Shown here: positions 2 through 13,816 of the stretch, piece by piece
How the letters are laid out: every line of letters begins with the position of its first letter
Position numbering within the stretch: the stretch's first letter is position 1
Assembly: GCA_040376505.1 (NCBI GenBank)
Contig: JBEIQK010000080.1
Coordinates: forward strand, 1-13,816
DNA from: Alphaproteobacteria bacterium
GTDB lineage: Bacteria; Myxococcota_A; UBA796; UBA2385
Direction: 5' to 3'
Length of the DNA: 13,816 bases
Translations under genes and position numbers: made by a program
Notes under the pieces: model-generated
Told to the model about the DNA's origin: nothing
Database searches by the model: none
The model's input: only the letters and a program-made list of their open reading frames with translations

Positions 2-154
2 GCCGACCTCCAAGATCTGATGCGACCGCGCAGCCTGCCAATCGGCCTCGGCCTCCTGGTCCTTCTGTGGACCATCAACAGCACGCCGCGCCTGTGGTCG
101 CTCCTCACCTTTGTCCTCCTGGCCCTCCTGTGGCGCCGCGGGAGCCGCTCATGA
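2..154 (+). CDS. 3' end of an upstream membrane-protein gene (partial, 5' end outside the window). The hydrophobic tail reads ...SLPIGLGLLVLLWTINSTPRLWSLLTFVLLALLWRRGSRS*
   Basis: Open frame from the window edge to a TGA at 152-154, with GC-rich third codon positions. The stop overlaps the ATG at 151 as ATGA. The peptide is strongly hydrophobic. The ORF track omits it because it has no start codon in the window. Confidence 0.4.
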   Translation, partial: ADLQDLMRPRSLPIGLGLLVLLWTINSTPRLWSLLTFVLLALLWRRGSRS

Positions 155-2382
155 TCGCCGCGCTCTTTGCCCTCCTCGGTTCGGTCGCCCTGGCCCAGGG
201 CGAGGCCGAGCTCCAGCAGGCCGCCGACGCCAATTTCGACGCCGTGATGATGCAGAACGAGGGCCAGGCCCTGGGCTATGTCAGCGGAGGCAACGCCGCC
301 GAGGCGCCGCCCCGGCCCGCGCCGCCGGTGTCGGATCCGGCGCCGGCCACCGAAGGCACCGTTCACCTGCCCCTGGCGCGCTACGACGCCCTGCGGGCCT
401 TGCTTGAACAGAGCGCTGCCCCCGCGCCCCAAACCGGCCTCGTGGTGCTGGGCTCCAGCAGCTACAGCGGGGAGGCCGTGCCCGGCGGCCTCTCCCTGCG
501 CCTGGAGCTGCAGATCACCCTGCGCGGGCCGGGGCGCTGGAAGACGGTGCCCCTGATCGGCGAAGAGGTGGCGGTGCGCTCGGCGCGCAGCCTGAACGGT
601 CCGATCGCGCTCGGTCACCAGTCGGGCTACCATGTCTGGGTCACCGACGCGGTGGGCGAGATCTCGCTCACCCTCGACCTCTTCGTGCCGGCCCGCGGGC
701 CGCGGGGCTCGCTGGAGTACGACTTTCTGGTCGCCCGCACGCCGATCACCCGCTTCGCCTGTCACTTCGACGCGGCCGGGCTGGAGCCTCGCCTCGAGAC
801 CGCCGTGCGGGCCGAGGTCACCGCCGGAGCCCAGGGCACCGACCTGATGGCCTGGCTCAATCCGACCAGCCGCATCCACCTTGTCGGCTTCAAGCAGCAG
901 AGCGAGAGCGCCGGGCTCACGGCCCGCCTCTACGCCGAGAGCCTGCACCTGCTCAGCCTGAGCGAAGATCGGGCCGATCTGTTCACGGTCATTCGCTACA
1001 ACATCCTGCAGGCCGGGGCCCAGCACTTCGACATCGCCATCCCGCCGGGCTGGAGCCTCGTCTCGGCCGAGGGAGCAGGCGGCCTGCGCGTCACCGCCGA
1101 GGCCCCCACCGCCGAGGGCACCCGCCTGCGCGGCGAGACGGCCTTCCCGATCCGCAGCGCCTACGAGATCTCCCTGCGCCTGGAGCGCGAGCTGCCCGAG
1201 CCCGGCGCGGAGCGCCTCTCCTTGTCGCCGCCCCAACCCCTGGGGGCCGAGCGGGAGTACGGCTGGATGGCCGTGGAGGCGGTGGGCAACCTGCGCGTCG
1301 AAGAAGAAGACCGCAGCGCCATCGCCGCGGTGGAGGTGCGCGAGCTGCCGCCCGAGATGGTGGAGAGCGCGGTGAGCCCGATACTGCGGGCCTGGCGCTA
1401 CCACCAGCCCGGCGCCCGCGTCTCCCTGCTGGCCACCCCCCTGCCCGAGAGCAAGCTGGCCAGCGGCTCGATCGACCGCCTGGAGGCCAGCACGGTGATC
1501 TCCCCCGAGGGCGGCTCGCTCACGGCCTTGCGGCTGGTGCTGCGCAACCGCCTGCGCCACAGCCTCGCCCTGCGCCTGCCCGGCGGGATGGTGGTCAAGT
1601 CCAGCCGCCTCGACGGCGAGCCCTTCACGCCCTCCCGGCGTGACGACGGCGCCCTGCTGGTGCCGCTGCGCCGTTCGGCCGGCGAGAACCGGCCCCGGCC
1701 CTTTGAGATCGAGCTGCTCCTGGCCGAGCAGCAGCCGGCCTTCTCGCTGCTCGGGGTCCGCAAGCCCCAACTGCCCACGGTGGAGCTGCCGGTCTCGGCG
1801 GTGGACTGGGAGCTTTGGGCCCCCGCCAACAACCGCTACTCGGCCCCCGACGGGGCGGTGCACAACGCCGCGGGGCCCGGCGCCCCTGCCCTCACCGTCG
1901 GCAGCACCCTGCCCCGCAACGGCACAGCCCTGCGCTACACCCGCAGCCACCTCGCCGCCGATCAGCACCTCGACGTCTCCTTCTGGTTCGCCCGGGGCTG
2001 GCTGCTGCTCCCCCTGCGCCTGCTCGCCGGGCTCGGCCTCCTGGCGCTGGGCGCCGCCCGCGGCCTCGCCACGCCACGGCGCCTCGCGGGGATGGTGCCC
2101 CTGGCCGGCCTGCTCTACCTGCTCGGCCACCGCGGCTGGATCGTCGCGCTGCCCCTCCTCGGCCTCGCCGGGGCGCGGCTGCGGGAGCTCGGCGTGGAGG
2201 GACTGCGGGCCGCCTTCTCCGCCGCCTTCGATCGCAGCGCCGAGCCCGCGCCGGGGAGCTGGCGGGCGGTGGGCTGGGGCGGCAAGCTCCTGCGCCTGGC
2301 GGTGGGGCTGCCCCTCGGTCTGGCCCTGCTGGGCGCGCTGCTCGACCTGCTGCGCACCGCCTTGCGCCCGGTGGGCGGCTGA
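151..2382 (+). CDS. Exported hypothetical protein (744 aa) with an N-terminal signal peptide and a C-terminal membrane anchor of several helices. Function unknown.
   Basis: The track ORF is 67-2382, but the in-frame ATG at 151 starts a classic signal peptide, MIAALFALLGSVALAQGEAEL. A GGGAG lies 6 nt upstream of it, and the ATG overlaps the upstream stop as ATGA. The last ~150 aa contain three or four hydrophobic helices (WLLLPLRLLAGLGLLALGAA..., MVPLAGLLYLLG..WIVALPLLGLAG, LLRLAVGLPLGLALLGALLDLL). High GC3 codon usage is maintained throughout. I recognise no catalytic motif. Confidence 0.7.
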   Translation: MIAALFALLGSVALAQGEAELQQAADANFDAVMMQNEGQALGYVSGGNAAEAPPRPAPPVSDPAPATEGTVHLPLARYDALRALLEQSAAPAPQTGLVVLGSSSYSGEAVPGGLSLRLELQITLRGPGRWKTVPLIGEEVAVRSARSLNGPIALGHQSGYHVWVTDAVGEISLTLDLFVPARGPRGSLEYDFLVARTPITRFACHFDAAGLEPRLETAVRAEVTAGAQGTDLMAWLNPTSRIHLVGFKQQSESAGLTARLYAESLHLLSLSEDRADLFTVIRYNILQAGAQHFDIAIPPGWSLVSAEGAGGLRVTAEAPTAEGTRLRGETAFPIRSAYEISLRLERELPEPGAERLSLSPPQPLGAEREYGWMAVEAVGNLRVEEEDRSAIAAVEVRELPPEMVESAVSPILRAWRYHQPGARVSLLATPLPESKLASGSIDRLEASTVISPEGGSLTALRLVLRNRLRHSLALRLPGGMVVKSSRLDGEPFTPSRRDDGALLVPLRRSAGENRPRPFEIELLLAEQQPAFSLLGVRKPQLPTVELPVSAVDWELWAPANNRYSAPDGAVHNAAGPGAPALTVGSTLPRNGTALRYTRSHLAADQHLDVSFWFARGWLLLPLRLLAGLGLLALGAARGLATPRRLAGMVPLAGLLYLLGHRGWIVALPLLGLAGARLRELGVEGLRAAFSAAFDRSAEPAPGSWRAVGWGGKLLRLAVGLPLGLALLGALLDLLRTALRPVGG

Positions 2383-3087: not shown

Positions 3088-4605
3088 ATGCGCAACAACG
3101 GTCCGGTCACCCAACGGGAAGTCCCCTTCGGCGATGACGATCTGATCATCTCCCGCACCGACCTCAAGGGCCTGATCACCTTCGTCAACCCCACCTTCAT
3201 CCGCATCTCGGGCTTCACCTGGGAGGAGCTGCAAGGAAAGCCGCACAACATGGTGCGGCACCCCGACATGCCGACGGAGGCCTTCGCCGACCTCTGGGCC
3301 ACGGTGAAGAGCGGCCGGCCCTGGACCGGCATGGTGAAGAACCGCTGCAAGAACGGCGACCACTACTGGGTCTTCGCCGATGTGACCCCGCTGCGGCAGG
3401 ACGGGCAGGTGGTGGGCTACGTCTCGGTGCGCTCCAAGCCCACGCGCGAGCAGGTGCGCGACGCCGAGGCGCTCTACGCCCGGCTGCGACTGGGACAGGG
3501 CCCCAAGCGAGACCTCGCCTGGTTCCTGAACAATGTGCAAGCCGGCAGCTTGATGACCGGCACCACCCTCCTCGCCGGCGCCGCCGCCATCGCCAGCCTC
3601 GCCGGGGCGCCGATCCCCGCCGCCCTCTGCGCCGCCGGCGCCGCTGCGCTGAGCCTGTGGACCCGCAGCCGCACCCTGGAGCCCCTGCGCGAGCTGGAGG
3701 CGGCCCTGCTCACCGGCGGGCCGGAGTCGCGCCTCGAGAACCTGCGCAAAGACGAGGTGGGGCGCGCCAGCGCCGCCTACAACGTGTCCAGCGGTCGCTT
3801 CAACCGCGTCATCCGCGAGCTGGCCCGCACCAGCCGCGTCCTGGTCGATGAGGCGGCCCGGGTCTCGGCGGCGGCCGAGGAGATGAGCACCACCACCATG
3901 CACATCGCCCAGAGCTCCGAGCGACAGAAGGAGCGGGTGGAGACCCTGGCCAACGCCATGCAGTCGCTCACCGCGGCGATCGAGCAGGTGGCGATTCACG
4001 CCCGGGCCAGCGAAGAGCGGGCTGGCCTCGCCTACCGCACCACCCAGGAAGGCGAGCAGCGCGGCAACGAGCTCACCCGCAGCATCGGCGAGATCCGCAC
4101 CAGCACGATGAGCATGGTCTCGGCGGTCGACACAATTCACGATCTGGCCAGCCAGACCGGCCTCCTCTCCCTCAACGCCACGATTGAGGCGGCCCGCGCC
4201 GGTGAGGTGGGCAAGGGCTTCGCCGTCGTCGCCGCCGAGGTGCGCAAGCTGGCCGAGCGCTCTTCGGGGGCTGGCACCGAGATCCAAAGCCTGATCGAGC
4301 GCTGCGACACGGCGGTGGCCCAGGGGGTGCAGACCAGCCGGGCCACGGTCGACGACTGGAAGGGCGTGCGCGAAAAGGTGAGCGAGGTCGATCAGATGAC
4401 CCGGGAGATCAGCCGCACCACCCAGCTCCAGGCACAAACCACCAGCGACGTGGCCCGCCAGATCGCCGCCAGCAGCGAAGACATCGCCTCGGGCGCCACC
4501 GCCTCCAACCAGATGGCCTCGGCCGCCTCGGAGATCGCCCGCACCGCCGCCACCCTGGAGGATGTCTCGCGCGGCCTGCTGCTGACGGTTGAGCAATTCG
4601 CCTGA
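3088..4605 (+). CDS. aer: Aer-like aerotaxis / energy-taxis transducer: N-terminal FAD-binding PAS domain, membrane hairpin, HAMP domain and methyl-accepting chemotaxis protein (MCP) signalling domain
   Basis: The N-terminus [89 protein letters not shown] is nearly colinear with the E. coli Aer PAS domain (..[48 protein letters not shown]). A hydrophobic hairpin follows ([37 protein letters not shown]). The canonical MCP signalling core [34 protein letters not shown] is present. At 505 aa it compares with 506 aa for E. coli Aer. A good RBS, AAGGAAG, lies 8 nt upstream of the ATG. Confidence 0.9.
3127..3448 (+). other. PAS (FAD-binding, Aer-type) domain region of the transducer
   Basis: Contains the conserved NMVRHPDMP and [14 protein letters not shown] blocks typical of Aer PAS-FAD sensors. 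Confidence 0.8.
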
Positions 4606-4654
4606 TCGATGGTGTGTTGCAATGATACCAGGGGGCCCGCGTAGCGGAGTCCTC

Positions 4655-5446
4655 ATGGATTCACCCCTCCTCCTCGCCCTGCTGGCGCCCCCCACTGTGG
4701 CCTACACCATCCTGTTGGCGCTCTGCGCGCTCTACTGGTCGATGGTGATCATCGGCGTGGCCGATCTCGACGGCTCCGATGGCGCCAGCCACGGCGTTGA
4801 AGGGCTGGTGGGCGCCGCCAAGGGCAGCGGCGAGGCCCTCGACGGCATCGTCGGCGTCGCCAAAGGCAGCGGCGAGGTCCTCGATGGGGCCATCGGCGCC
4901 GCCAAGGGTGCCCACGCCGATCTCGGCGATGTGGGCGTGTTCAGCAAGGTCTTCAGCGCCTGGCGGGTGCGCGGCGTGCCGGTCACAGTCTCGCTCAGCC
5001 TGCTGGCCTTGGCCGGCCTCTTCCTCAGCACGTTGCTGCTCGATCTTCTCCGCCCCCTGCTGCCCAGCCTTGGCGCCCAGGCGGCGGCGGGGATCGGCTC
5101 GCTCCTCGGCGGCGGCGCCTTCGCCCGCCTCGCCGCGAGCCCCCTCGCCGGCTTCTTCGAGGTCCGCCATGGCACCCGGCGGGCCGCCCTGCTCGGCCAG
5201 ACCGCCACCCTCGCCACCGGCTGGGTCAACGCCGAATTTGGCCAGGCCGAGCTCAAAGACGGCGGCGCCGGCCTGCTGCTGGCGGTGCGCTTTGACCAGC
5301 CCAATGACCTCAAGAAGGGCGACCCCGTGCTGCTGGTTCACTATGACACCGCCCGCCAGGCCTACATCGTCGAGCCTTTGCACCCACCCTCCCCCGCCGC
5401 TTCGGCCACCCCCCTCCGCACCCCACCCCAACGGGAGCTCTCATGA
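4655..5446 (+). CDS. NfeD/YqiJ-like inner-membrane protein with a C-terminal OB-fold, the usual partner of flotillin/SPFH proteins
   Basis: The track ORF starts at 4589, but the ATG at 4655 has a GGAG 6 nt upstream and begins a TM helix (MDSPLLLALLAPPTVAYTILLALCALYWSMVIIGV). A second TM helix follows (VTVSLSLLALAGLFLSTLLLDLL). The C-terminal soluble beta-rich segment GQTATLATGWVNAEFGQAELKDGGAGLLLAVRFDQPNDLKKGDPVLLVHYDTARQAYIVEPL has the glycine/valine pattern of NfeD-type OB domains. Its stop (TGA 5444-5446) overlaps the flotillin ATG (5443) as ATGA. The same gene order occurs in yqiJ-yqiK and yuaF-floT. Confidence 0.75.
   Translation: MDSPLLLALLAPPTVAYTILLALCALYWSMVIIGVADLDGSDGASHGVEGLVGAAKGSGEALDGIVGVAKGSGEVLDGAIGAAKGAHADLGDVGVFSKVFSAWRVRGVPVTVSLSLLALAGLFLSTLLLDLLRPLLPSLGAQAAAGIGSLLGGGAFARLAASPLAGFFEVRHGTRRAALLGQTATLATGWVNAEFGQAELKDGGAGLLLAVRFDQPNDLKKGDPVLLVHYDTARQAYIVEPLHPPSPAASATPLRTPPQRELS
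4808..4933 (+). repeat. Three in-frame tandem copies of a 42-nt / 14-aa unit inside the NfeD-like gene (VGAAKGSGEALDGI / VGVAKGSGEVLDGA / IGAAKGAHADLGDV)
   Basis: The repeat is visible in both nucleotide and protein sequence. It lies between the first and second TM segments. Confidence 0.6.
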
Positions 5447-7614
5447 GTCTTGAACTTGTCGCTGTCCTCATCATCTTCTCGGCGCTGCTGCTGGTCGGCA
5501 TCGGCGTGTTGGTCGCCCGCTGCTACCGCCAGGTAGAGCAGGGCCAGGCCCTCATCATCAACAAGATGAGCGGCGAGCCCGTGGTGACCTTTGGCGGCGC
5601 GGTGGTGTACCCGATCATCAACAAGGCCGAGGTGATGAACATCTCGGTAAAGACAATCGAGATCGAGCGCCGCGGCCAGGAGGGCTTGATCTGCAAAGAC
5701 AACATCCGCGCCGACATCAAGGTCACCTTCTTCGTCCGGGTCAACAAGACCGTCGAAGACGTGCTCAAGGTCGCCCAGGCCATCGGCTGCGAGCGGGCCA
5801 GCGACCAGAACACCCTCGAAGCGCTCTTTGTCGCCAAGTTCTCCGAGGCCTTGAAGACGGTCGGCAAGCGGCTTGAGTTTGAAGAGCTCTACACCCAGCG
5901 CGACAACTTCAAGGATCAGATCATCGAGGTCATCGGCCGCGACCTCAACGGCTATGTCCTCGAAGACGCCGCGATCGACTTCCTTGAACAGACCCCCCTG
6001 TCCAAGCTCGACAAGGAGAACATCCTCGACGCGCAGGGCATCCGCAAGATCACCGAGATCACCACCCAGCAGAACGTGAAGACCAACGACCTTCGCCAGA
6101 CCGAGCGCAAGGCCCTGGGAAAACAGAACCTGGAGGCCGACGAGGCGGTGATGGAGCTCGAGAAGCGCCGGGCCGACGCCGCCGCCCGCCAGAAGCGCGA
6201 GATCGACTCGATCCAGTCGCGGGAGTCCAATGAGGCCGCCCGGGTGAAGACCGAAGAAGAGAAGAAGGCCAAGATCGCCGCCGTGAAGGCCGATGAGGAG
6301 CTCAAGCTCACCGAAGTGGCCCGGGCCCGCCAGATCGAGATCGCCGAGAAGGACCGCCAGCGCGTCATCGCCATCAAGTCCGAGCAGGTCGAGAAGGACC
6401 GCCAGCTCGAAGTGCTGGTGCGCGAGCGCGAGGTGGAGCTCAACCGCATCGACAAAGACAAGGCCCTCGAAAAAGAGCGCAAGGAGATCGCCGATGTGGT
6501 GCGCGGCCGCATCGTCGTCGACCGGGCGGTGGCCGAAGAAGAGGAGCGCATCAAGACCCTGCGCACCAACGCCGAGGCCGAGCGCAAGAAGCAGGTGACC
6601 ATCATCGCCGCCGACGCGGCGGCCACCGAGAAGCTGGTGGCCCAGATCAAGGGCGCCGAGGCCAGCGAGAAGGCCTCCGAGCACAAGGCCCGCGAGCGCA
6701 TCACCCTGGCCAACGCCGCCCTCGACGCCGCCACCAAGGAGAGCCAGGCCAAGGTGCGCTTGTCGGAGGGCATGGCCGCCGAGGCCGCCACGCCCGGCAT
6801 CGCCGAGGCCCGCGGCAAGGAGGCCCTGGCCCAGGCCTACAAGAAGCAGGGCTTGATCGAAGCCCGCGTCACCCGCGAGAAGATGCTGGCCGAGGCCGAG
6901 GGCTCCGAGAAGAAGGGCCTCGCCGAGCTGCGTGTGCGCGAGGCCGCCATCTCCCTCGAAGAGCGCGAGGGTGCCGTCAAGGCCGGCATCACCACCGCCG
7001 TCGGCAACGCCGAGTCCGAGTCCCTGCGCTCCCGCATGTTCGCCGAGGCCGCCGGTCGCGAAGCCGGCGCCGTGGCCATCGAGAAGGTCGCCCTGGCCGA
7101 GGCCCGCGGTATCCAGGAGAAGATGCGCGCCGAGGCCGTGGGTCTGTCGGAGAAGCTCACTGCGATGAAGCAGATGGAGGGGGCAGCCCGGGCCCACGAG
7201 GAATTCCGCCTCACCCTGGAGAAGGACCGCGCCGTGCAGCTCGCCACCGTGGACGCGCGCATCAAGATGGCCGAGGCCCAGGCCCGGATCCTGGCCACCG
7301 CCTTCGAGCACGCCCAGATCAAGATCGTCGGCGGCGAGAGCGCCTTCATCAACCAGTTCACCCGCGCCGCCGCCTTTGGTGAGACGGTGGAGGGGGTGAT
7401 GGATCAGTCGCCGGTGGTCAAGCAGATCGTCGAAGGTGTGATGGAGGGCGGCCCGGTGAGCGACACGCTGAAGACCGCGAGCCTCGCCGCCCTGCTCACC
7501 CGCTTCATCCAGGGCAGCGAGGGCCCCGCCAAGGAGAAGCTCGAGCAGCTCCTCGACAAGGCCCGCAAGCTCGGCGTGGACACCGTGACCGGTGGTGTTG
7601 ACCATGTCCGCTGA
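5443..7614 (+). CDS. Flotillin-family SPFH/band-7 protein (YqiK/FloT-like), 723 aa, with an N-terminal TM helix, an SPFH domain and a very long E/A/K/R-rich coiled-coil tail
   Basis: An N-terminal TM helix (LVAVLIIFSALLLVGIGVLVA) is followed by an SPFH core (ALIINKMSGEPVVTFGGAVVYPIINKAEVMNISVKTIEIERRGQEGLICKDNIRADIKVTFFVRVNK...LEFEELYTQRDNFKDQIIEVIGRDLNGYVLEDAAIDF). About 450 aa of heptad-like EA/KR repeats follow, as in flotillins (KAKIAAVKADEELKLTEVARARQIEIAEKDRQRVIAIKSEQVEKDRQLEVLVREREVELNRIDKDKALEKERKEIAD...). The start overlaps the NfeD-like stop. A GGGAG lies 5 nt upstream. Confidence 0.9.
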   Translation: MSLELVAVLIIFSALLLVGIGVLVARCYRQVEQGQALIINKMSGEPVVTFGGAVVYPIINKAEVMNISVKTIEIERRGQEGLICKDNIRADIKVTFFVRVNKTVEDVLKVAQAIGCERASDQNTLEALFVAKFSEALKTVGKRLEFEELYTQRDNFKDQIIEVIGRDLNGYVLEDAAIDFLEQTPLSKLDKENILDAQGIRKITEITTQQNVKTNDLRQTERKALGKQNLEADEAVMELEKRRADAAARQKREIDSIQSRESNEAARVKTEEEKKAKIAAVKADEELKLTEVARARQIEIAEKDRQRVIAIKSEQVEKDRQLEVLVREREVELNRIDKDKALEKERKEIADVVRGRIVVDRAVAEEEERIKTLRTNAEAERKKQVTIIAADAAATEKLVAQIKGAEASEKASEHKARERITLANAALDAATKESQAKVRLSEGMAAEAATPGIAEARGKEALAQAYKKQGLIEARVTREKMLAEAEGSEKKGLAELRVREAAISLEEREGAVKAGITTAVGNAESESLRSRMFAEAAGREAGAVAIEKVALAEARGIQEKMRAEAVGLSEKLTAMKQMEGAARAHEEFRLTLEKDRAVQLATVDARIKMAEAQARILATAFEHAQIKIVGGESAFINQFTRAAAFGETVEGVMDQSPVVKQIVEGVMEGGPVSDTLKTASLAALLTRFIQGSEGPAKEKLEQLLDKARKLGVDTVTGGVDHVR

Positions 7615-10600
7615 GAAAGAGGGCGGACCGAGCCTGGACGCCGGCGGCAATTACGCCGTCATTCGGGCTCGCTTGGAGCAGAACACCGCCGAGCTGCGGA
7701 CGCGGGCCGAGGCTGTCAACCAGCGTCGCCGCGCCCTCTTCGGCGGCCAGGAGCTGGCCATCATCGGCAACGAGCGCGTGCGCACCGAGCACAACTGCGC
7801 GCCGCGCAACCTCGTACAGGTGAACGGTCGGCTCCTGTTCGGCTACAATGTCCAGTTCGCCCTCAAGAAGCAGGTGGCGGTGAGCGATGTCTTTTCGCTC
7901 CACGCCTGCGCGGAGACCGAAGGGGGCCTCGATCTCTCGGCCTTGCCGGCCAGCGAGATCGGCGGCCTCCTCGATGATCCGCGCTTTGTGAATGAGTTCC
8001 AGGAGCTGTACCAGTATTACGTCGACGCCCGCCTCGTGGTGGTGCGCCACGTCGGCAGCAAGCTCCTGGCCGTCTTTCGAACCGGCAAGGGCGACAATGA
8101 CATCCGCGTCTTTCGCTGGAGCCTCTCGCCGGGCAGCCCCCCGGTCTACATCGACAACCGCGGCGAGAAAGACCACACCCGCCCCGCCCAGCAGGACTTC
8201 GCCTGGACCGAGGCCAGCCGCGACGACCACATCCTCGGCCGCCACCCGCACATCAACATCCTCGACACGGTCTTTGTCGAGACGATCGGCGGCGATCTGA
8301 CCATCAAGATCGAGGACAACACCAACACCGGCCAGGGCATCTACGCCGAGCCGGTGGACGACCGCACCCAGTCCCTCGACGACGCCAACGTGGCCTACGC
8401 CAAGGTGGGCGGGCTCATCCTGCTCAAGATCCGGCCCTTTGGCGAGGCCAACTTCCGCTACCTGGTCTACAACACCCGCAGCAAGTCGGTCACCCGCATC
8501 GACGCCATCGGCCGGGCCTGCCTGCAGCTCCCCGAAGAGCACGGCATCATCTTTCCGGGCGGGTACTATCTACAAAACGGCGCCGTCAAGCTCTTTGACG
8601 GCGACACCACCGGCCTGCGCTTCAAGCGCGTCGTCAAGAGCCCCAATGGCGAGGATGTTCTGTACATCTTCGATCGGGAGGAGGCCGGCACCTATGTGCT
8701 GCTGCCCTACAACCTGATCCGCCAGGAGGTGTCGAACCCCATCGCCGCCGCCGGCTACACCTTCTTCGACGACGGCCGGATGCTGCTCCTCAAGTCGGAG
8801 GGCGACGAGCCGGTGCGGGTTCACCCGATCCAGATCTGGCGCACCCCCTTCTGTTCAGAGACCTGGGCCGCCGCCCACAGCAAGGGCGACGGCAGCTACC
8901 TCGCCCGGGTGGGCAATGGCGACCTCGTGCGCGGCCTCTCCGAGCTGCTGGCCCTCGGGCGGGCGGTGGAGAACCTGAGCCCCAGCCGCCTCGTGTACGA
9001 AGACCTGATCAAGGCCGCCACCCGGGCGCTTGACAACCTGCACTGGCTCGGCCACGCCGAGGCCGGCGGCCTGCGCGACACGGTCGACACGATCCGCAAG
9101 AACGCCGAGCTGATCATCGACGAATTCGAGAAGCTGGTCGCGATGCAGCAGAGCGCGCGCAATCAGCTCGCCCGCGCCACCGAATCCTGGGCCGAGCAGC
9201 GCCGCGGCCTGCGCCCCGACGAGCTGGCCAGCGTCTCGGCCTTCATGGGTGCGCTGACCGGCCTGCGCCAGACCCGCGGTCACCTGATCAGCCTGCGCGA
9301 GGTGCGCCACATCGACCTCCCCGCGATCGACACAATGGAGGCCGAGGTCGTCGCCGCCTTTGACAGCGTCTCGGCCGCCGCCGTGGTCTTTCTCAGTCGC
9401 CCCGACTCCCTGGTGCCGCTCCAGGGCGAGCTCGATCAGCTCCTCACCGACATCGAGGCCACCACCAAGGTGGTCGACATCAAGCCCAAGGCCGCCCGCC
9501 TCGCCGAGGTGGCCACCGGCGTGACCCTGCTCATCGAGGTGGTGAGCGGGCTGCAGGTCGAAGACCCCACCGTGCGCACCGCCATCCTGGAGCGCATCTC
9601 CGACGTGATGGGGCATAACAACCGGGTGCGCGCCGTGCTGGAGGCCCGCGGCAAGGAGCTCCGGGGCAAGGAGGCCCGGGCCGAGTTCGGCGCCCAGTGG
9701 AAGCTGCTCGGTCAGTCCACCGCCAACGCCATCGCCAGCGCCGACACGCCTGAGGCCTGCGATGAACAGTTGGGCCGGGTGCAGGTCGCCCTGGAGGAGC
9801 TCGACGCCCGCTTTGGCGAGTTCGATGACTACCGCACCCAGCTCATCGACAAGCGCGAGGAGGTGCTCGAAGCCTTCTCCGCCCGCCGCCAGGCCCTGGT
9901 CGACGAGCGCAACCGCAAGGTGATGGGGCTCTTCTCCGCCGCCGAGCGCATCCTCGAAGGGGTCACCCGCCGCGCTTCGACCTTCAAGGACGACGACGCG
10001 CTCAACGCCTGGTTCTCCTCCGACCCGATGATCAGCCGCCTGCGCGGGCTGGGCGAGCAGCTCGCCACGCTGGGCGACAACGTGAAGAGCGAAGAGCTGC
10101 AGAGCCGGCTCAAGGCCGCCCGTCAGTCGGCCCAGCGCCTGCTGCGCGACAAGACCGATCTGTTCACCGACGGCAGCGACCTCATCTCGCTCGGCAACCA
10201 CCGCTTCAGCGTCAACCGCACCGCCGTGGAGCTGGTGGTGGTGCCCCGCGGTGAGGGCATGGCCCTGCACTTGAACGGCACCGACTTCTTCGAAGCCGTG
10301 AGCGACGCCGACTTTGTGCAGACCCGCGACTTCTGGGGCCAGACGATGGCCAGCGAGACCGAGACGGTCTACCGCGCCGAGCACCTCGCCGCCTCGCTGC
10401 TCTTCGCCGCCGAGCGCGGCGAGGGCCCCCACAGCATCGAGTCCCTCTCGGCCCTGCCCGAAGGGGATCTGGCCGCCTTCGTGCGCAGCACCGCCGCCGA
10501 GCGCTATGACGAAGGCTACGAGCGGGGCGTCCACGACGCCGACGCCGCTGCCATCCTGCGCAGCCTGCTCAACCTTCGACAGGCCGCCGGGCTGCTCCGT

Positions 10601-13003
10601 TTTCCCGCCGCCGCCCGCTCGCTCGCAGTGCTCTTCTGGGCCTTCTTTGACGAGCGCGAGCCCCGGGAGGCCTGGCACCGCCAAGCCCGCGCCATCGGCC
10701 GGATGTTGCAGGTGATGCGCGACGAGCGCGGCCTCACCGTGCTCGCCGCCACCCTGGCCGAGCGGATGGGCCGCTACTTCACCGCCGTGCTGCCGAGCCT
10801 CGCCCCCCTGGCCACCCCGCCCACCCTGGCCCTGGCCGGCCGCTACCTCGTCTTTGAGCTGATGGCCGAGCGGCCGCGCTTCCTCGTCTCCGCCGACGCC
10901 CTGGCCCTGCGCGACGGGCTCTTCGTCGCCCTCGACGGCGCCGGCCTCCGCCTCGCCTTTGAAGAAGACCTGCGGGCCCTGGAAAACAGACCCGACGAGC
11001 GGGTGGCCCTCTGCGACGCCTGGCTCACCGGCTGGCTGACCGACCCGAGCCGGGCGCCCCTGGCCCACGCCCGCCTCGAAGCCCTGACCCTGCTCACCGC
11101 CGCCCGCCGCCTGGAGCGCGAGGGCTCCGTCGCCGCCCTCTCCGCCGAGGTGCCCGGCCTGCTCGGCCAGCACCCGCGGGTGGCCAACCGCACCCTGTCG
11201 CTGCGCCTCGACGAGGCCCTCGACCGCCTCGGCCGCCACCTGAACGAACGGGTGCCCGGCTTCGCCCGCTACCGCGCCGCCCGCAGCGCCCTGCTCAGCC
11301 GCGAGCGCAAGCGCCTGCGCCTCGACGAATTTGTGCCCAAGGTGATGACCACCTTCGTGCGCAACCGGCTCATCTCCGAGGTCTACCTCAAGCTGATCGG
11401 CGACAACCTCGCCAAACAGTTGGGCGCGGCCGGGGCCAACAAGCGCACCGACACCATGGGCATGCTTCTGCTCATCTCGCCGCCCGGCTACGGCAAGACC
11501 ACCCTGATGGAGTATGTCGCCAGCCAGCTCGGCCTCATCTTCATGAAGGTGAACGGTCCCGCCCTGGGCCATGAGGTCACCAGCCTCGACCCCTCGGAGG
11601 CCCCCAACGCCACCGCCCGCCAGGAGGTGGAGAAGATCAACCTCGCCCTGGAGATGGGCAACAACGCGATGTTGTACCTTGACGACATCCAGCACACCCA
11701 CCCCGAGCTGCTGCAGAAATTCATCTCCCTCTGCGACGGCACCCGGCGGATCGAGGGCGTGTGGAAGGGGGTCACCCGCACCTACGACCTGCGCGGAAAG
11801 AAGTTCTGTGTCGTCATGGCCGGCAACCCCTACACCGAGTCCGGCGCCCGCTTTCAGATCCCCGACATGCTGGCCAACCGCGCCGACACCTACAACCTGG
11901 GCGACATCCTGGGCGGCCGCGAGGATCTGTTCGCGCTCTCCTACGTCGAAAACTGCCTCGCCAGCAACGCCACCCTCTCTCCCCTCGCCGCCCGCGACCC
12001 CAAAGACCTGCACCGCCTCGTGGCGCTGGCCCAGGGGGCCGAGGTCGACACCGCCACCCTGTCGCACGCCTATTCGGCCGCCGAGCTGGGCGAGATCGTG
12101 AGCGTGCTGCGCCACCTCTTCGCTGTGCGCAACGTGCTGCTCAAGGTCAACGCCGAGTACATCCGCTCCGCCGCCCAGTCCGACGCCTACCGCACCGAGC
12201 CGCCTTTCAAGCTGCAGGGCAGCTACCGCAACATGGCCAAGATCACCGAGAAGATCGTGGGCGCCCTCACCCCCGCCGAGGTCGAGCGCATCATCACCGA
12301 TCACTATGTCTCCGAGGCCCAAACCCTCACCACCGGCGCCGAGCAGAACCTGCTCAAGCTGGCCGAGCTGCGCGGCATCCAGTCGCCTGAACAAAAGGCT
12401 CGCTGGGAGGAGATCAAGGCCGGCTTCGCCCGGGCCCAGCTGATGGGCGGCAAAGAAGACGATCCAGTCACCCGCGTCACCGGCACCCTGCTGGCCCTCG
12501 GCAAGGAGATGGGCGGCGCCCGCGAGGCGATGACCAGCCAGCTCGCCGGCCTGCGCGAGGCCCTGCGCAGCCAGGGCGGCGTGGAAGACCAGCTCTCCGA
12601 GGTGTCGGGCGAGCTGCGCGCCCTGCGGATGGCCTACACCGCCCCCAAGCTGGCCCCCGAGGCCCCGACCGGGCCGGTCACCCCCGCCGAGCCCGCCTGG
12701 CCCGGCCCGCACCTCGAGGTGGCCGCCGAGGCCGATCTGCTGCTGCGCCACGCTGTGCTCCTCGAAGTACAGCGCGCCCTCGTCGCCCACGGCCGGATGC
12801 AGGCCCGGGCCGCCGAGCCCCTGCGCACCGCCGACCTGATCCTGGGCGCCACGATGCCGATCATGCGCGAGCTGACCGAACAGGTGGGCGAGCTGCTCAC
12901 CGACCGCCTCGCCCCCGCCGAGCGCGACCAGGCCATCGACGAGCTGCGCCGCCGGGTCGCCCGGGCGATCAGCCGGCTCAGCGAGGTCGCGCCGCGGGCT
13001 TGA
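7604..13003 (+). CDS. Giant hypothetical protein (about 1,799 aa) with a single MoxR/AAA_5-class AAA+ ATPase module near residue 1300. The ~1,290-aa N-terminal region and ~320-aa C-terminal region are unassigned.
   Basis: One uninterrupted high-GC3 reading frame of 5.4 kb. Walker A is LLLISPPGYGKTTLMEY (nt ~11471-11512). Walker B is AMLYLDDIQ (~11666-11692). The sensor/arginine-finger block CVVMAGNPYTESGARFQIPDMLANRADTY (~11812-11890) matches the NP...G...lP.AllDRF signature of MoxR/dynein-related AAA_5 ATPases. The likely start is the ATG at 7604 (MSAEKEGG...), which overlaps the last 11 nt of the flotillin gene. The track's GTG at 7592 is an alternative. The N-terminal region is predicted to be beta-rich (e.g. 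FRYLVYNTRSKSVTRIDAIGRACLQLPEEHGIIFPGGYYLQNG) and the central region alpha-helical. Confidence 0.8.
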   Translation: MSAEKEGGPSLDAGGNYAVIRARLEQNTAELRTRAEAVNQRRRALFGGQELAIIGNERVRTEHNCAPRNLVQVNGRLLFGYNVQFALKKQVAVSDVFSLHACAETEGGLDLSALPASEIGGLLDDPRFVNEFQELYQYYVDARLVVVRHVGSKLLAVFRTGKGDNDIRVFRWSLSPGSPPVYIDNRGEKDHTRPAQQDFAWTEASRDDHILGRHPHINILDTVFVETIGGDLTIKIEDNTNTGQGIYAEPVDDRTQSLDDANVAYAKVGGLILLKIRPFGEANFRYLVYNTRSKSVTRIDAIGRACLQLPEEHGIIFPGGYYLQNGAVKLFDGDTTGLRFKRVVKSPNGEDVLYIFDREEAGTYVLLPYNLIRQEVSNPIAAAGYTFFDDGRMLLLKSEGDEPVRVHPIQIWRTPFCSETWAAAHSKGDGSYLARVGNGDLVRGLSELLALGRAVENLSPSRLVYEDLIKAATRALDNLHWLGHAEAGGLRDTVDTIRKNAELIIDEFEKLVAMQQSARNQLARATESWAEQRRGLRPDELASVSAFMGALTGLRQTRGHLISLREVRHIDLPAIDTMEAEVVAAFDSVSAAAVVFLSRPDSLVPLQGELDQLLTDIEATTKVVDIKPKAARLAEVATGVTLLIEVVSGLQVEDPTVRTAILERISDVMGHNNRVRAVLEARGKELRGKEARAEFGAQWKLLGQSTANAIASADTPEACDEQLGRVQVALEELDARFGEFDDYRTQLIDKREEVLEAFSARRQALVDERNRKVMGLFSAAERILEGVTRRASTFKDDDALNAWFSSDPMISRLRGLGEQLATLGDNVKSEELQSRLKAARQSAQRLLRDKTDLFTDGSDLISLGNHRFSVNRTAVELVVVPRGEGMALHLNGTDFFEAVSDADFVQTRDFWGQTMASETETVYRAEHLAASLLFAAERGEGPHSIESLSALPEGDLAAFVRSTAAERYDEGYERGVHDADAAAILRSLLNLRQAAGLLRFPAAARSLAVLFWAFFDEREPREAWHRQARAIGRMLQVMRDERGLTVLAATLAERMGRYFTAVLPSLAPLATPPTLALAGRYLVFELMAERPRFLVSADALALRDGLFVALDGAGLRLAFEEDLRALENRPDERVALCDAWLTGWLTDPSRAPLAHARLEALTLLTAARRLEREGSVAALSAEVPGLLGQHPRVANRTLSLRLDEALDRLGRHLNERVPGFARYRAARSALLSRERKRLRLDEFVPKVMTTFVRNRLISEVYLKLIGDNLAKQLGAAGANKRTDTMGMLLLISPPGYGKTTLMEYVASQLGLIFMKVNGPALGHEVTSLDPSEAPNATARQEVEKINLALEMGNNAMLYLDDIQHTHPELLQKFISLCDGTRRIEGVWKGVTRTYDLRGKKFCVVMAGNPYTESGARFQIPDMLANRADTYNLGDILGGREDLFALSYVENCLASNATLSPLAARDPKDLHRLVALAQGAEVDTATLSHAYSAAELGEIVSVLRHLFAVRNVLLKVNAEYIRSAAQSDAYRTEPPFKLQGSYRNMAKITEKIVGALTPAEVERIITDHYVSEAQTLTTGAEQNLLKLAELRGIQSPEQKARWEEIKAGFARAQLMGGKEDDPVTRVTGTLLALGKEMGGAREAMTSQLAGLREALRSQGGVEDQLSEVSGELRALRMAYTAPKLAPEAPTGPVTPAEPAWPGPHLEVAAEADLLLRHAVLLEVQRALVAHGRMQARAAEPLRTADLILGATMPIMRELTEQVGELLTDRLAPAERDQAIDELRRRVARAISRLSEVAPRA
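11450..11900 (+). other. AAA+ (MoxR/AAA_5-like) ATPase module within the giant protein
   Basis: Walker A GYGKTT, Walker B hhhhDD (LYLDDIQ), and the NPYTESG...IPDMLANRAD sensor-2-like motif, all read from the translation. Confidence 0.7.
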
Positions 13004-13061
13004 CGAATCTGTTGCACAGTCGCCCCGCCCTCGGGCAACCTTGAGCGTGATCGAGGTGCCC

Positions 13062-13352
13062 ATGGCCGTTCCCCGCCCGCCCATCGCCGCCGACGCCCTC
13101 TGTGGCGGACCCCTCCGCCAGGTCCCCCACCAGCTCCCCGAGGCCCCCGACCTCGCCGACAAGCCGCTGCTGGCCCTCCTCGCCGAGCGTCACACGCTGC
13201 ATGCCGCCCGCCACGCCCCCCTCTCGGCCGCCGCCCGGGCCCGCCACACCCTGCGCACCGAGCAGCTCGACGACGAGCTGGCCCTGCGCAGCCTCTTCGA
13301 AGAGGCCGACCCGCGGCGCCTCGGCGCGCCCCTCGCCGGCCCCCAGGCCTGA
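13062..13352 (+). CDS. Small hypothetical protein (~96 aa), Pro/Ala/Leu-rich
   Basis: In-frame ATG at 13062 within track ORF 13041-13352. GC3 is very high (nearly every codon ends in G or C), as in the certain genes here. I recognise no motif. The overlapping alternative frame 13102-13401 reads as P/S/T/R-rich nonsense and was rejected. Confidence 0.35.
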   Translation: MAVPRPPIAADALCGGPLRQVPHQLPEAPDLADKPLLALLAERHTLHAARHAPLSAAARARHTLRTEQLDDELALRSLFEEADPRRLGAPLAGPQA

Positions 13353-13384: not shown

Positions 13385-13816
13385 ATGTCCAGCGCCCTTG
13401 ACCACCGCCTGCGCAGCCCGCGCGCCGCCGACCGCCTCGCCGCCCTGATGGCGATCGGCGCCGAGGGCCGCTTTGAGCTCGCCGAGGCCGTGCGCGCCCT
13501 CCTCGACGACGAGGCCCCCTACGTCTTCCTGCACCAAGGCGCCGAGACCCGCATCGCCGAGCTGCGCCTCGCCGCCCTCACCACCCTCCAGCAGCTCCAC
13601 CGGGCCGCCGAGCTGCCCCTCTCCACGCGCCCCATCGCCGTGCGCAGCGCCACCCCCACCGACGTGGTGCTCGGCCTCGGCGACCTCTGGCTGCGCCGAA
13701 TGGAGCCCGCCGCCGCCCGCGCCGCCCGCGCCGCCGCCGACGACTTCCTCGACGAGCGGGTGCGCCCCGACGCCGAAGAGCGAGCGGTGCTGCGGGCCTG
13801 GCGGGTGCTGGCCCAG
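13385..13816 (+). CDS. 5' part of a hypothetical protein with HEAT/PBS-lyase-like alpha-helical repeats (partial; continues beyond the window)
   Basis: ATG at 13385 with the frame open to the window edge, so it is absent from the track. The translation is MSSALDHRLRSPRAADRLAALMAIGAEGRFELAEAVRALLDDEAPYVFLHQGAETRIAELRLAALTTLQQL... It shows the D..VR..A..AL..IG pattern typical of HEAT-like repeats and high GC3. Confidence 0.4.
   Translation, partial: MSSALDHRLRSPRAADRLAALMAIGAEGRFELAEAVRALLDDEAPYVFLHQGAETRIAELRLAALTTLQQLHRAAELPLSTRPIAVRSATPTDVVLGLGDLWLRRMEPAAARAARAAADDFLDERVRPDAEERAVLRAWRVLAQ

Follow-up and report, generated by a model that had tools for sequence, protein, structure and literature searches.

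The window analysed here, a stretch of 13,816 nucleotides on contig JBEIQK010000080.1, contains a three-gene membrane module in which a giant protein of 1,799 amino acids is encoded directly after a YqiK-type flotillin and a YqiJ/NfeD-like membrane protein. The giant protein belongs to the DUF3686 family and combines the DUF3686 domain with DUF7902 and a single AAA+ module, and the gene triad is near-invariant in the loci where the family is found. With moderate confidence we regard it as the ATPase of this module, remodelling membrane assemblies of flotillin and also of PspA. Flotillin remodelling is likelier than DNA repair because the gene lies almost always right after those of the flotillin and the NfeD-like partner. 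A previous reading of the same DNA from its letters only (the sequence-only reading) described the giant protein and overlooked both upstream partners as well as the operon's prior computational description.

Anatomy of the DUF3686 ATPase

The open reading frame 7592/7604–13003 on the plus strand gives a protein of 1,799 residues from the ATG at 7604. The window has a G+C content of about 70%, and the G+C of third codon positions (GC3) lies at 0.85–0.98 and that of second positions at about 0.4–0.5, with an unbroken plus strand signal from about 7600 to 13000 in the GC3 frame plot. The reading frame is a genuine gene, since this codon-position pattern continues along its whole length. An antisense frame of 1,435 residues (8855–13162, minus strand) overlaps most of the gene, and was rejected as an artefact of high G+C because the codon-position pattern fits only the gene on the plus strand. 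An identical 1,799-residue protein is encoded by an ENA metagenome contig (P0001; locus L082).

All domains below are given with their nucleotide positions on the plus strand. DUF3686 (residues 30–480, 7691–9043) matches PF12458 over profile positions 1–448 of 448, with an E value of 8.7e-191 and 634.7 bits against a cut-off of 25. Pfam describes this family as 'ATPase involved in DNA repair', and the large proteins of DUF plus AAA architecture under that description, which the sequence-only reading had named as perhaps related, are this family, which matches from end to end. The same reading had left everything before about residue 1290 unassigned, which does not hold for the domain assignment, as Pfam places DUF3686 at residues 30–480 and DUF7902 (PF25472, E 6.7e-24, 84.3 bits against 26) at residues 601–685 (9404–9658), and holds for their function, both being domains catalogued in Pfam without a known function. 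The N-terminal family is thus a known one that is uncharacterised, and the Pfam scan for domains accompanying AAA_5 gives the same set, DUF3686 and DUF7902, in 120 listed homologues.

Residues 1–490 and residues 481–1680 were modelled separately with AlphaFold (AF2). The first model, from an alignment of 65 sequences, has a mean predicted local distance difference test score (pLDDT) of 89.6 and a predicted template modelling score (pTM) of 0.87. It consists of a long helix (16–46), a beta-propeller-like domain with about 28 strands at 52–413, mostly arranged in fours and making up roughly 7–8 four-stranded groups, and capping helices (419–478). The second model (pLDDT 86, pTM 0.64) begins with a region of long helices in a bundle or coiled coil (residues 481–853, 9044–10162, pLDDT about 80–90), in which DUF7902 is embedded; residues 490–853 are wholly helical according to DSSP, with helices of up to 58 residues. 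Both the beta-rich N-terminus and the long helical middle that had been noticed by eye are therefore present in the models. Further on are a small five-stranded beta domain (residues 860–898, 10181–10297, 380–418 in model numbering) with the conserved motif LGRHRFxVNT, a helical domain ahead of the ATPase (residues 924–1166, 10373–11101, pLDDT about 90–95), and, at residues 1173–1201, three short strands, after which comes a long helix. The single AAA+ alpha/beta core (residues 1275–1435, 11426–11908) is followed by a helical lid and conserved C-terminal region containing the motif FKLQGSYRNM (residues 1436–1625, 11909–12478), and by a variable helical tail of low conservation (residues 1626–1799, 12479–13000). 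In the second model the core spans about residues 1287–1431 and the lid extends to about residue 1613. No transmembrane segment was found in the protein, in agreement with the sequence-only reading. In 25 homologues, 116 of the 185 positions of the AAA+ core and 76 of 366 in the propeller are invariant, and the tail has no invariant column and a mean majority fraction of 0.36. The tail is much shorter in the actinomycete loci, where most of the stop-to-stop frames comprise about 1,580–1,720 codons. In the PDB there is no match outside the AAA module by sequence, nor by fold for residues 490–1250, and when the protein itself or a profile of 25 sequences serves as query, the sequence matches are confined to the P-loop region, with no solved relative for residues 1–1270.

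The AAA+ module has a Walker A motif SPPGYGKT at residues 1292–1299, with Ser as first residue, and a Walker B motif MLYLDD at 1356–1361 (LYLDDIQH), whose acidic pair D1360/D1361 (nucleotides 11674–11679) is Asp-Asp instead of the usual Asp-Glu and invariant in 65 homologues. A beta-hairpin is found between alpha3 and beta4 at 1382–1395, and N1408 and R1426 are the likely sensor-1 and Arg finger. Weak Pfam matches to AAA, AAA_5, AAA_22 and RuvB_N fall within residues 1275–1411 only. No second Walker A-like motif was found, and the models, which cover residues 1–1680, contain one Rossmann-type module only and thus no hidden degenerate AAA modules, as anticipated from the single module seen near residue 1290. 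In structure the predicted core is closest to the remodelling ATPases CbbQ, NorQ, midasin and dynein among PDB entries, and the module, which is strongly constrained, belongs to the MoxR/midasin/dynein clade. Midasin and dynein have six concatenated AAA+ modules, whereas the giant protein has only one; with one P-loop in 1,799 residues its architecture is, as had been pointed out, neither that of MoxR proteins (about 300 residues) nor that of midasin.

The flotillin operon and its conservation

The gene preceding that of the ATPase (5443–7614, plus strand) encodes a flotillin of 723 residues, a YqiK-type SPFH protein with an N-terminal transmembrane segment or hairpin, an SPFH domain, a long coiled coil rich in Ala, Glu and Lys, and a conserved C-terminal part of about 160 residues. 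When residues 1–210 are scanned alone they match Band_7 (PF01145, E 1.5e-12, 48.4 bits against 23.6), and BLASTP to E. coli YqiK gives an E value of 6e-41. The whole protein matches nothing in Pfam at E ≤ 10, nor any sequence in the PDB; evidently the long coiled coil trips the HMMER filters in such a scan. The gene is also shown as '-' in the automated annotation of the source contig. The SPFH part has a median identity of 68% across the loci described below versus 33% to YqiK, and the C-terminal 163 residues are conserved in 76 loci and not in E. coli YqiK. By these comparisons the partner flotillin forms a separate subfamily, which is highly conserved and carries a C-terminal extension of its own.

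Upstream of the flotillin gene is that of the YqiJ/NfeD-like membrane protein (4655–5446, plus strand), which was assigned by gene call, hydrophobic segments and profile comparison. Its 263 residues comprise hydrophobic, probably transmembrane N-terminal helices, an acidic and Gly-rich loop and a predicted C-terminal OB-like domain; the conserved C-terminal motif is G..C.V.TG.V...FGQA...DGGAGL.L.VR....L.RGD. A family profile of 13 homologues aligns with the single E. coli YqiJ sequence over 135 columns (hhalign probability 92%, E 5.7e-7); BLASTP of a 285-residue reading of the protein (4589–5443) against E. coli YqiJ is not significant, and YqiJ_N of Pfam matches two homologues weakly and the window protein not at all, as this has no Pfam match. 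YqiJ is the NfeD-type partner of YqiK (PMC2636767). The stop codon of the YqiJ-like gene overlaps the ATG of the flotillin gene (ATGA at 5443–5446), the start of the giant gene (7604) overlaps the flotillin stop (7614) by 11 nucleotides, and no terminator-like site was found on the plus strand between the three genes.

More than 6,339 homologues of the giant protein were scored, and the 120 that were listed in detail have 1,653–1,968 residues, the nearest non-identical relative among them being 61% identical. They are named 'DNA repair ATPase' at NCBI and 'MoxR-like ATPase' or hypothetical at JGI. With residues 1–490 as query, phmmer found 717 clusters at E ≤ 1e-3 among 1.84 billion representatives, 524 of them at E ≤ 1e-10 and 245 at E ≤ 1e-30. 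Among the best 150 listed, all full-length proteins (1,590–2,036 residues) have the DUF3686 domain N-terminally, none has it in another architecture, and the shorter ones are probably for the most part fragments from truncated contigs. Four metagenomic sequences in which a flotillin or NfeD-protease is apparently fused with DUF3686 (P0194, P0221, P0259 and P0262) contain long Arg/Pro-rich stretches that are out of frame, or have internal deletions; they seem to be products of faulty gene calling or assembly in high-GC contigs and were not accepted as fusions. Two Sorangium homologues (P0037 and P0041) have an additional PilZ domain (PF07238) in the precomputed Pfam list, which hints at an input of cyclic di-GMP to the ATPase in those lineages.

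The family is present in at least 566 species representatives and in about 700 clusters at 50% identity. A scan with one genome per species gave at least 566 encoding loci, of which 80 were kept for context counts; these come from Myxococcota, Actinomycetota, Gammaproteobacteria, Planctomycetota and others, covering at least four phyla. In 76 of the 80 loci the giant gene has a flotillin gene that ends no more than 500 nucleotides upstream of it; in two of the remaining four it is located 3.4 and 6.4 kb upstream, and the two other contigs have no upstream DNA. The YqiJ-like gene precedes the flotillin gene in 72 of the 80. The triad occurs even in a distant lineage with 36% G+C (L083), where the giant protein is 33% identical and TelA is encoded directly downstream. 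By tblastn from the reference locus, no further conserved neighbour was found around the triad in the 80 loci.

The additions that do occur are confined to subsets of loci. DUF2170 and PspA genes are located upstream of the triad in 14 loci, 13 of them gammaproteobacterial and one in the betaproteobacterium Lampropedia (L043, L045–L047, L052, L054, L057, L059, L062, L063, L067, L071, L074 and L077). A gene of the phospholipase D (PLD) family is present in nine loci and a rhomboid protease gene in nine, nearly all of them just downstream of the giant gene. The DUF2170/PspA, PLD and rhomboid additions are all membrane-related.

A search of the literature on DUF3686, PF12458 or 'DNA repair ATPase' together with flotillin found nothing. 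Under other names, an ATPase with beta-propeller, coiled coil and AAA+ domain in YqiJ/YuaF-flotillin(-PspA) operons has been described by comparative genomics in a study of the evolution of the phage-shock-protein system (PMC11237479, mSystems 2024). The full operon of that study joins a CesT/Tir-PspA dyad to three genes, one of them encoding a YqiJ/YuaF protein with three transmembrane segments, and phospholipase D is added in some Proteobacteria; abbreviated operons, with flotillin, YqiJ/YuaF and sometimes the ATPase, are more widely spread (row for Dokdonia in Table S3). The authors proposed ATP-dependent membrane remodelling or chaperone-like assembly. Since loci of the Pseudomonas type show the full published operon around DUF3686 proteins, the ATPase of PMC11237479 and the DUF3686 proteins are the same family, and we take DUF2170 to be the CesT/Tir-like gene. 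The window has the same domain order and gene order (YqiJ-like, flotillin, ATPase) and corresponds to the abbreviated form, differing from the full operon in that the CesT/Tir-like and PspA dyad is absent and PAS-MCP and GreA genes are found upstream instead, with the PAS-MCP gene directly in front. The family and its operon have accordingly already been catalogued and discussed computationally, and the 1,799-residue protein adds one member.

Possible function of the module

In the reading that we favour, remodelling of flotillin assemblies, the flotillin and the NfeD-like partner would form a large SPFH oligomer on the cytoplasmic side of the membrane. The giant protein, which is soluble, would oligomerise through its single MoxR/midasin/dynein-type AAA+ module, presumably as a ring, and engage the flotillin assembly with the N-terminal beta-propeller-like domain and the long helical arm, a predicted combination that is typical of proteins engaging a substrate or partner. 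The C-terminal extension that sets this flotillin subfamily apart is a plausible docking site. Through ATP turnover the ATPase would then remodel, open or disassemble the scaffold or its clients, which in Gammaproteobacteria would include the polymer of the co-encoded PspA, a member of the ESCRT-III superfamily, and the role would be analogous to that of Vps4 on ESCRT-III or of FtsH within HflK/C. The domain anatomy, the family membership and the near-invariant triad are shown, and the physical interaction, oligomeric state, substrate and direction of the reaction in this scheme are what we infer from the module. Speaking for the scheme are the gene linkage and its persistence in the low-GC lineage, the overlapping genes, the distinct flotillin subfamily, the membrane-related additions in some loci, and the strong constraint on the AAA+ core with its structural likeness to remodelling ATPases.

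SPFH proteins are paired with AAA+ machines elsewhere, as HflK/C is with FtsH. HflK/C-FtsH in bacteria and the prohibitin-m-AAA protease pair in mitochondria both couple an SPFH scaffold to a membrane AAA+ machine (PMC1468410, PMC13086221); the giant ATPase instead has neither a protease domain nor a transmembrane anchor, is of a different AAA+ clade, and has its gene in one operon with that of its SPFH protein. The loci with PspA bring the module into one operon with an ESCRT-III superfamily protein, in likeness to Vps4/ESCRT-III and PspF/PspA, and the proposed ATP-driven turnover of a membrane-bound polymer would be analogous to the action of Vps4. Unlike Vps4, the giant protein has no MIT domain and is of another AAA+ clade, and PspA is absent from most loci, including the window.

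Several points weigh against flotillin remodelling. Adjacency establishes a functional link and does not tell the acting protein from its target. A DUF3686 ATPase is dispensed with in many functioning YqiJ-YqiK operons, among them the E. coli and Shewanella ones (PMC1468410), and the ATPase is therefore no general requirement of flotillins. The propeller has many invariant charged residues, and it could serve for ligand binding or catalysis instead of docking. As the Walker B motif is Asp-Asp and not Asp-Glu, the module may be a slow, switch-like hydrolase rather than a processive motor. In the literature, no experimental study of any member of the DUF3686 ATPase family was found.

A more specific version of the same reading can be put forward tentatively. 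In this, the DUF3686 protein would be a dedicated ATP-driven motor for opening or disassembling flotillin (SPFH) cages, and PspA/ESCRT-III polymers where these are co-encoded, which would make it functionally a bacterial equivalent of Vps4 or NSF with only one AAA module, of the dynein/midasin/MoxR type, and with the propeller as grip and the helical arm as lever.

It is possible, and in our view rather unlikely, that the flotillin and NfeD-like proteins only anchor the ATPase, whose true clients would be other proteins, such as misfolded or stalled membrane proteins or secretion or respiratory complexes; it would then resemble FtsH inside HflK/C or p97 at erlin complexes, but have no protease. 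The gene-linkage data fit this equally, proteins with the MoxR-clade fold typically remodel specific client complexes in chaperone-like fashion, a client could be recognised by the large propeller, in which many polar residues are invariant, and the lineage-specific PspA, PLD, rhomboid and TelA genes suggest that membrane clients vary. No candidate client gene is conserved beside the module, however, and the strong conservation of the flotillin subfamily together with its module-specific C-terminal extension fits a direct partner or substrate better.

The occurrence of the triad is patchy across distant phyla, at roughly equal identities of about 45–60%, a pattern that agrees with horizontal transfer. 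Some Proteobacteria have PLD-family genes next to it, and defence systems often contain large proteins that combine a single ATPase with sensor-like repeats. The triad might thus be a horizontally mobile defence system, of the abortive-infection or envelope-stress kind, in which the propeller senses an invader and the flotillin triggers membrane effects. We hold this to be improbable, as none of the three proteins has a significant match in PADLOC-DB 2.0, where the giant protein hits only IetA, limited to the P-loop and with E values of 8e-4 to 7e-3, and the flotillin and the YqiJ-like protein hit nothing, and no PHROG match was found; the core triad has no nuclease or toxin domain, and the neighbours are housekeeping genes (GreA, CoA-transferase, FtsH), not defence or mobile genes.

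The AAA+ module shares the AAA_5/AAA_3-type ATPase fold of the MoxR family (CbbQ, NorQ, RavA), with an AAA_5 score of 25.7–28.3 bits exceeding the Pfam threshold of 22 and with CbbQ and NorQ as the best structural matches. A canonical MoxR-type, metallochaperone-like ATPase that matures a metalloenzyme with a VWA/MIDAS partner, as do NorQ/NorD and CbbQ/CbbO, is nevertheless very improbable. The giant protein is six times the size of MoxR, with about 1,270 extra N-terminal residues and a Walker B motif of DD, not DE, and its sequence likeness to any solved AAA+ protein is limited to the P-loop region. The adjacent VWA partner that the sequence-only reading had thought of looking for is missing from the window and from the 3.4 kb past the gene on the longer source contig, and no VWA gene is conserved in the 80 loci, the conserved partners being SPFH and NfeD proteins.

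That the database name is right and the giant protein is a DNA-repair ATPase is hardly credible, given that this derives only from the family description in Pfam and the product name used by NCBI plus weak RuvB_N/RuvB matches at the P-loop, a likeness of about 45 residues around Walker A with 22–25 bits against NCBIfam cut-offs of 282–299, while DUF3686 itself has no P-loop and a beta-propeller-like fold, the domain scans detected neither a nuclease nor a helicase nor a DNA-binding domain, repair genes are not among the conserved neighbours, and all conserved partners are membrane proteins.

Other genes in the window and meaning of the module

The gene in front of the triad (3088–4605, plus strand) encodes a soluble protein of 505 residues with PAS and MCP-signalling domains (Pfam MCPsignal E 6e-30, PAS_3 E 1e-18). 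It precedes the YqiJ-like gene, with which it shares the strand, by 49 nucleotides, and a transmembrane segment was not noticed in its product by eye. No homologue was found beside the module in the 80 loci; it is a lineage-specific and possibly regulatory association outside the conserved module. Upstream of it, at about 2390–2905 on the plus strand, is an unrelated housekeeping gene for the transcription elongation factor GreA (GreA_GreB_N and C-terminal domains, E about 1e-22 to 1e-24). The first open reading frame (67–2382, plus strand; 771 residues) has strong coding GC3 and no Pfam or NCBIfam match. Its product, in which a signal-like hydrophobic stretch is seen by eye at the N-terminus and further hydrophobic segments at the C-terminus, would be an uncharacterised envelope protein. 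Downstream of the ATPase are, on the plus strand, a gene of 96 codons (13062–13352) with a sub-threshold match to DUF6158 (E 3e-4) and a partial gene (13385–13816) running off the end, which on the source contig encodes 250 residues without a Pfam match; beyond the window the contig continues with a gene for 238 residues and a Metallophos phosphoesterase. None of these four downstream genes is conserved with the module.

The idea of the operon dates to 2024 (PMC11237479), and what is added here is its confirmation, the structural anatomy of the ATPase and a sharper, testable hypothesis. Nothing in the results supports the product name 'DNA repair ATPase', which is probably a misleading annotation. 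For the role of bacterial flotillins and the turnover of their assemblies, a large, conserved and co-operonic ATPase offers a concrete handle, and if the giant protein is indeed a disassembly motor it would be the first defined enzymatic regulator of bacterial flotillins.

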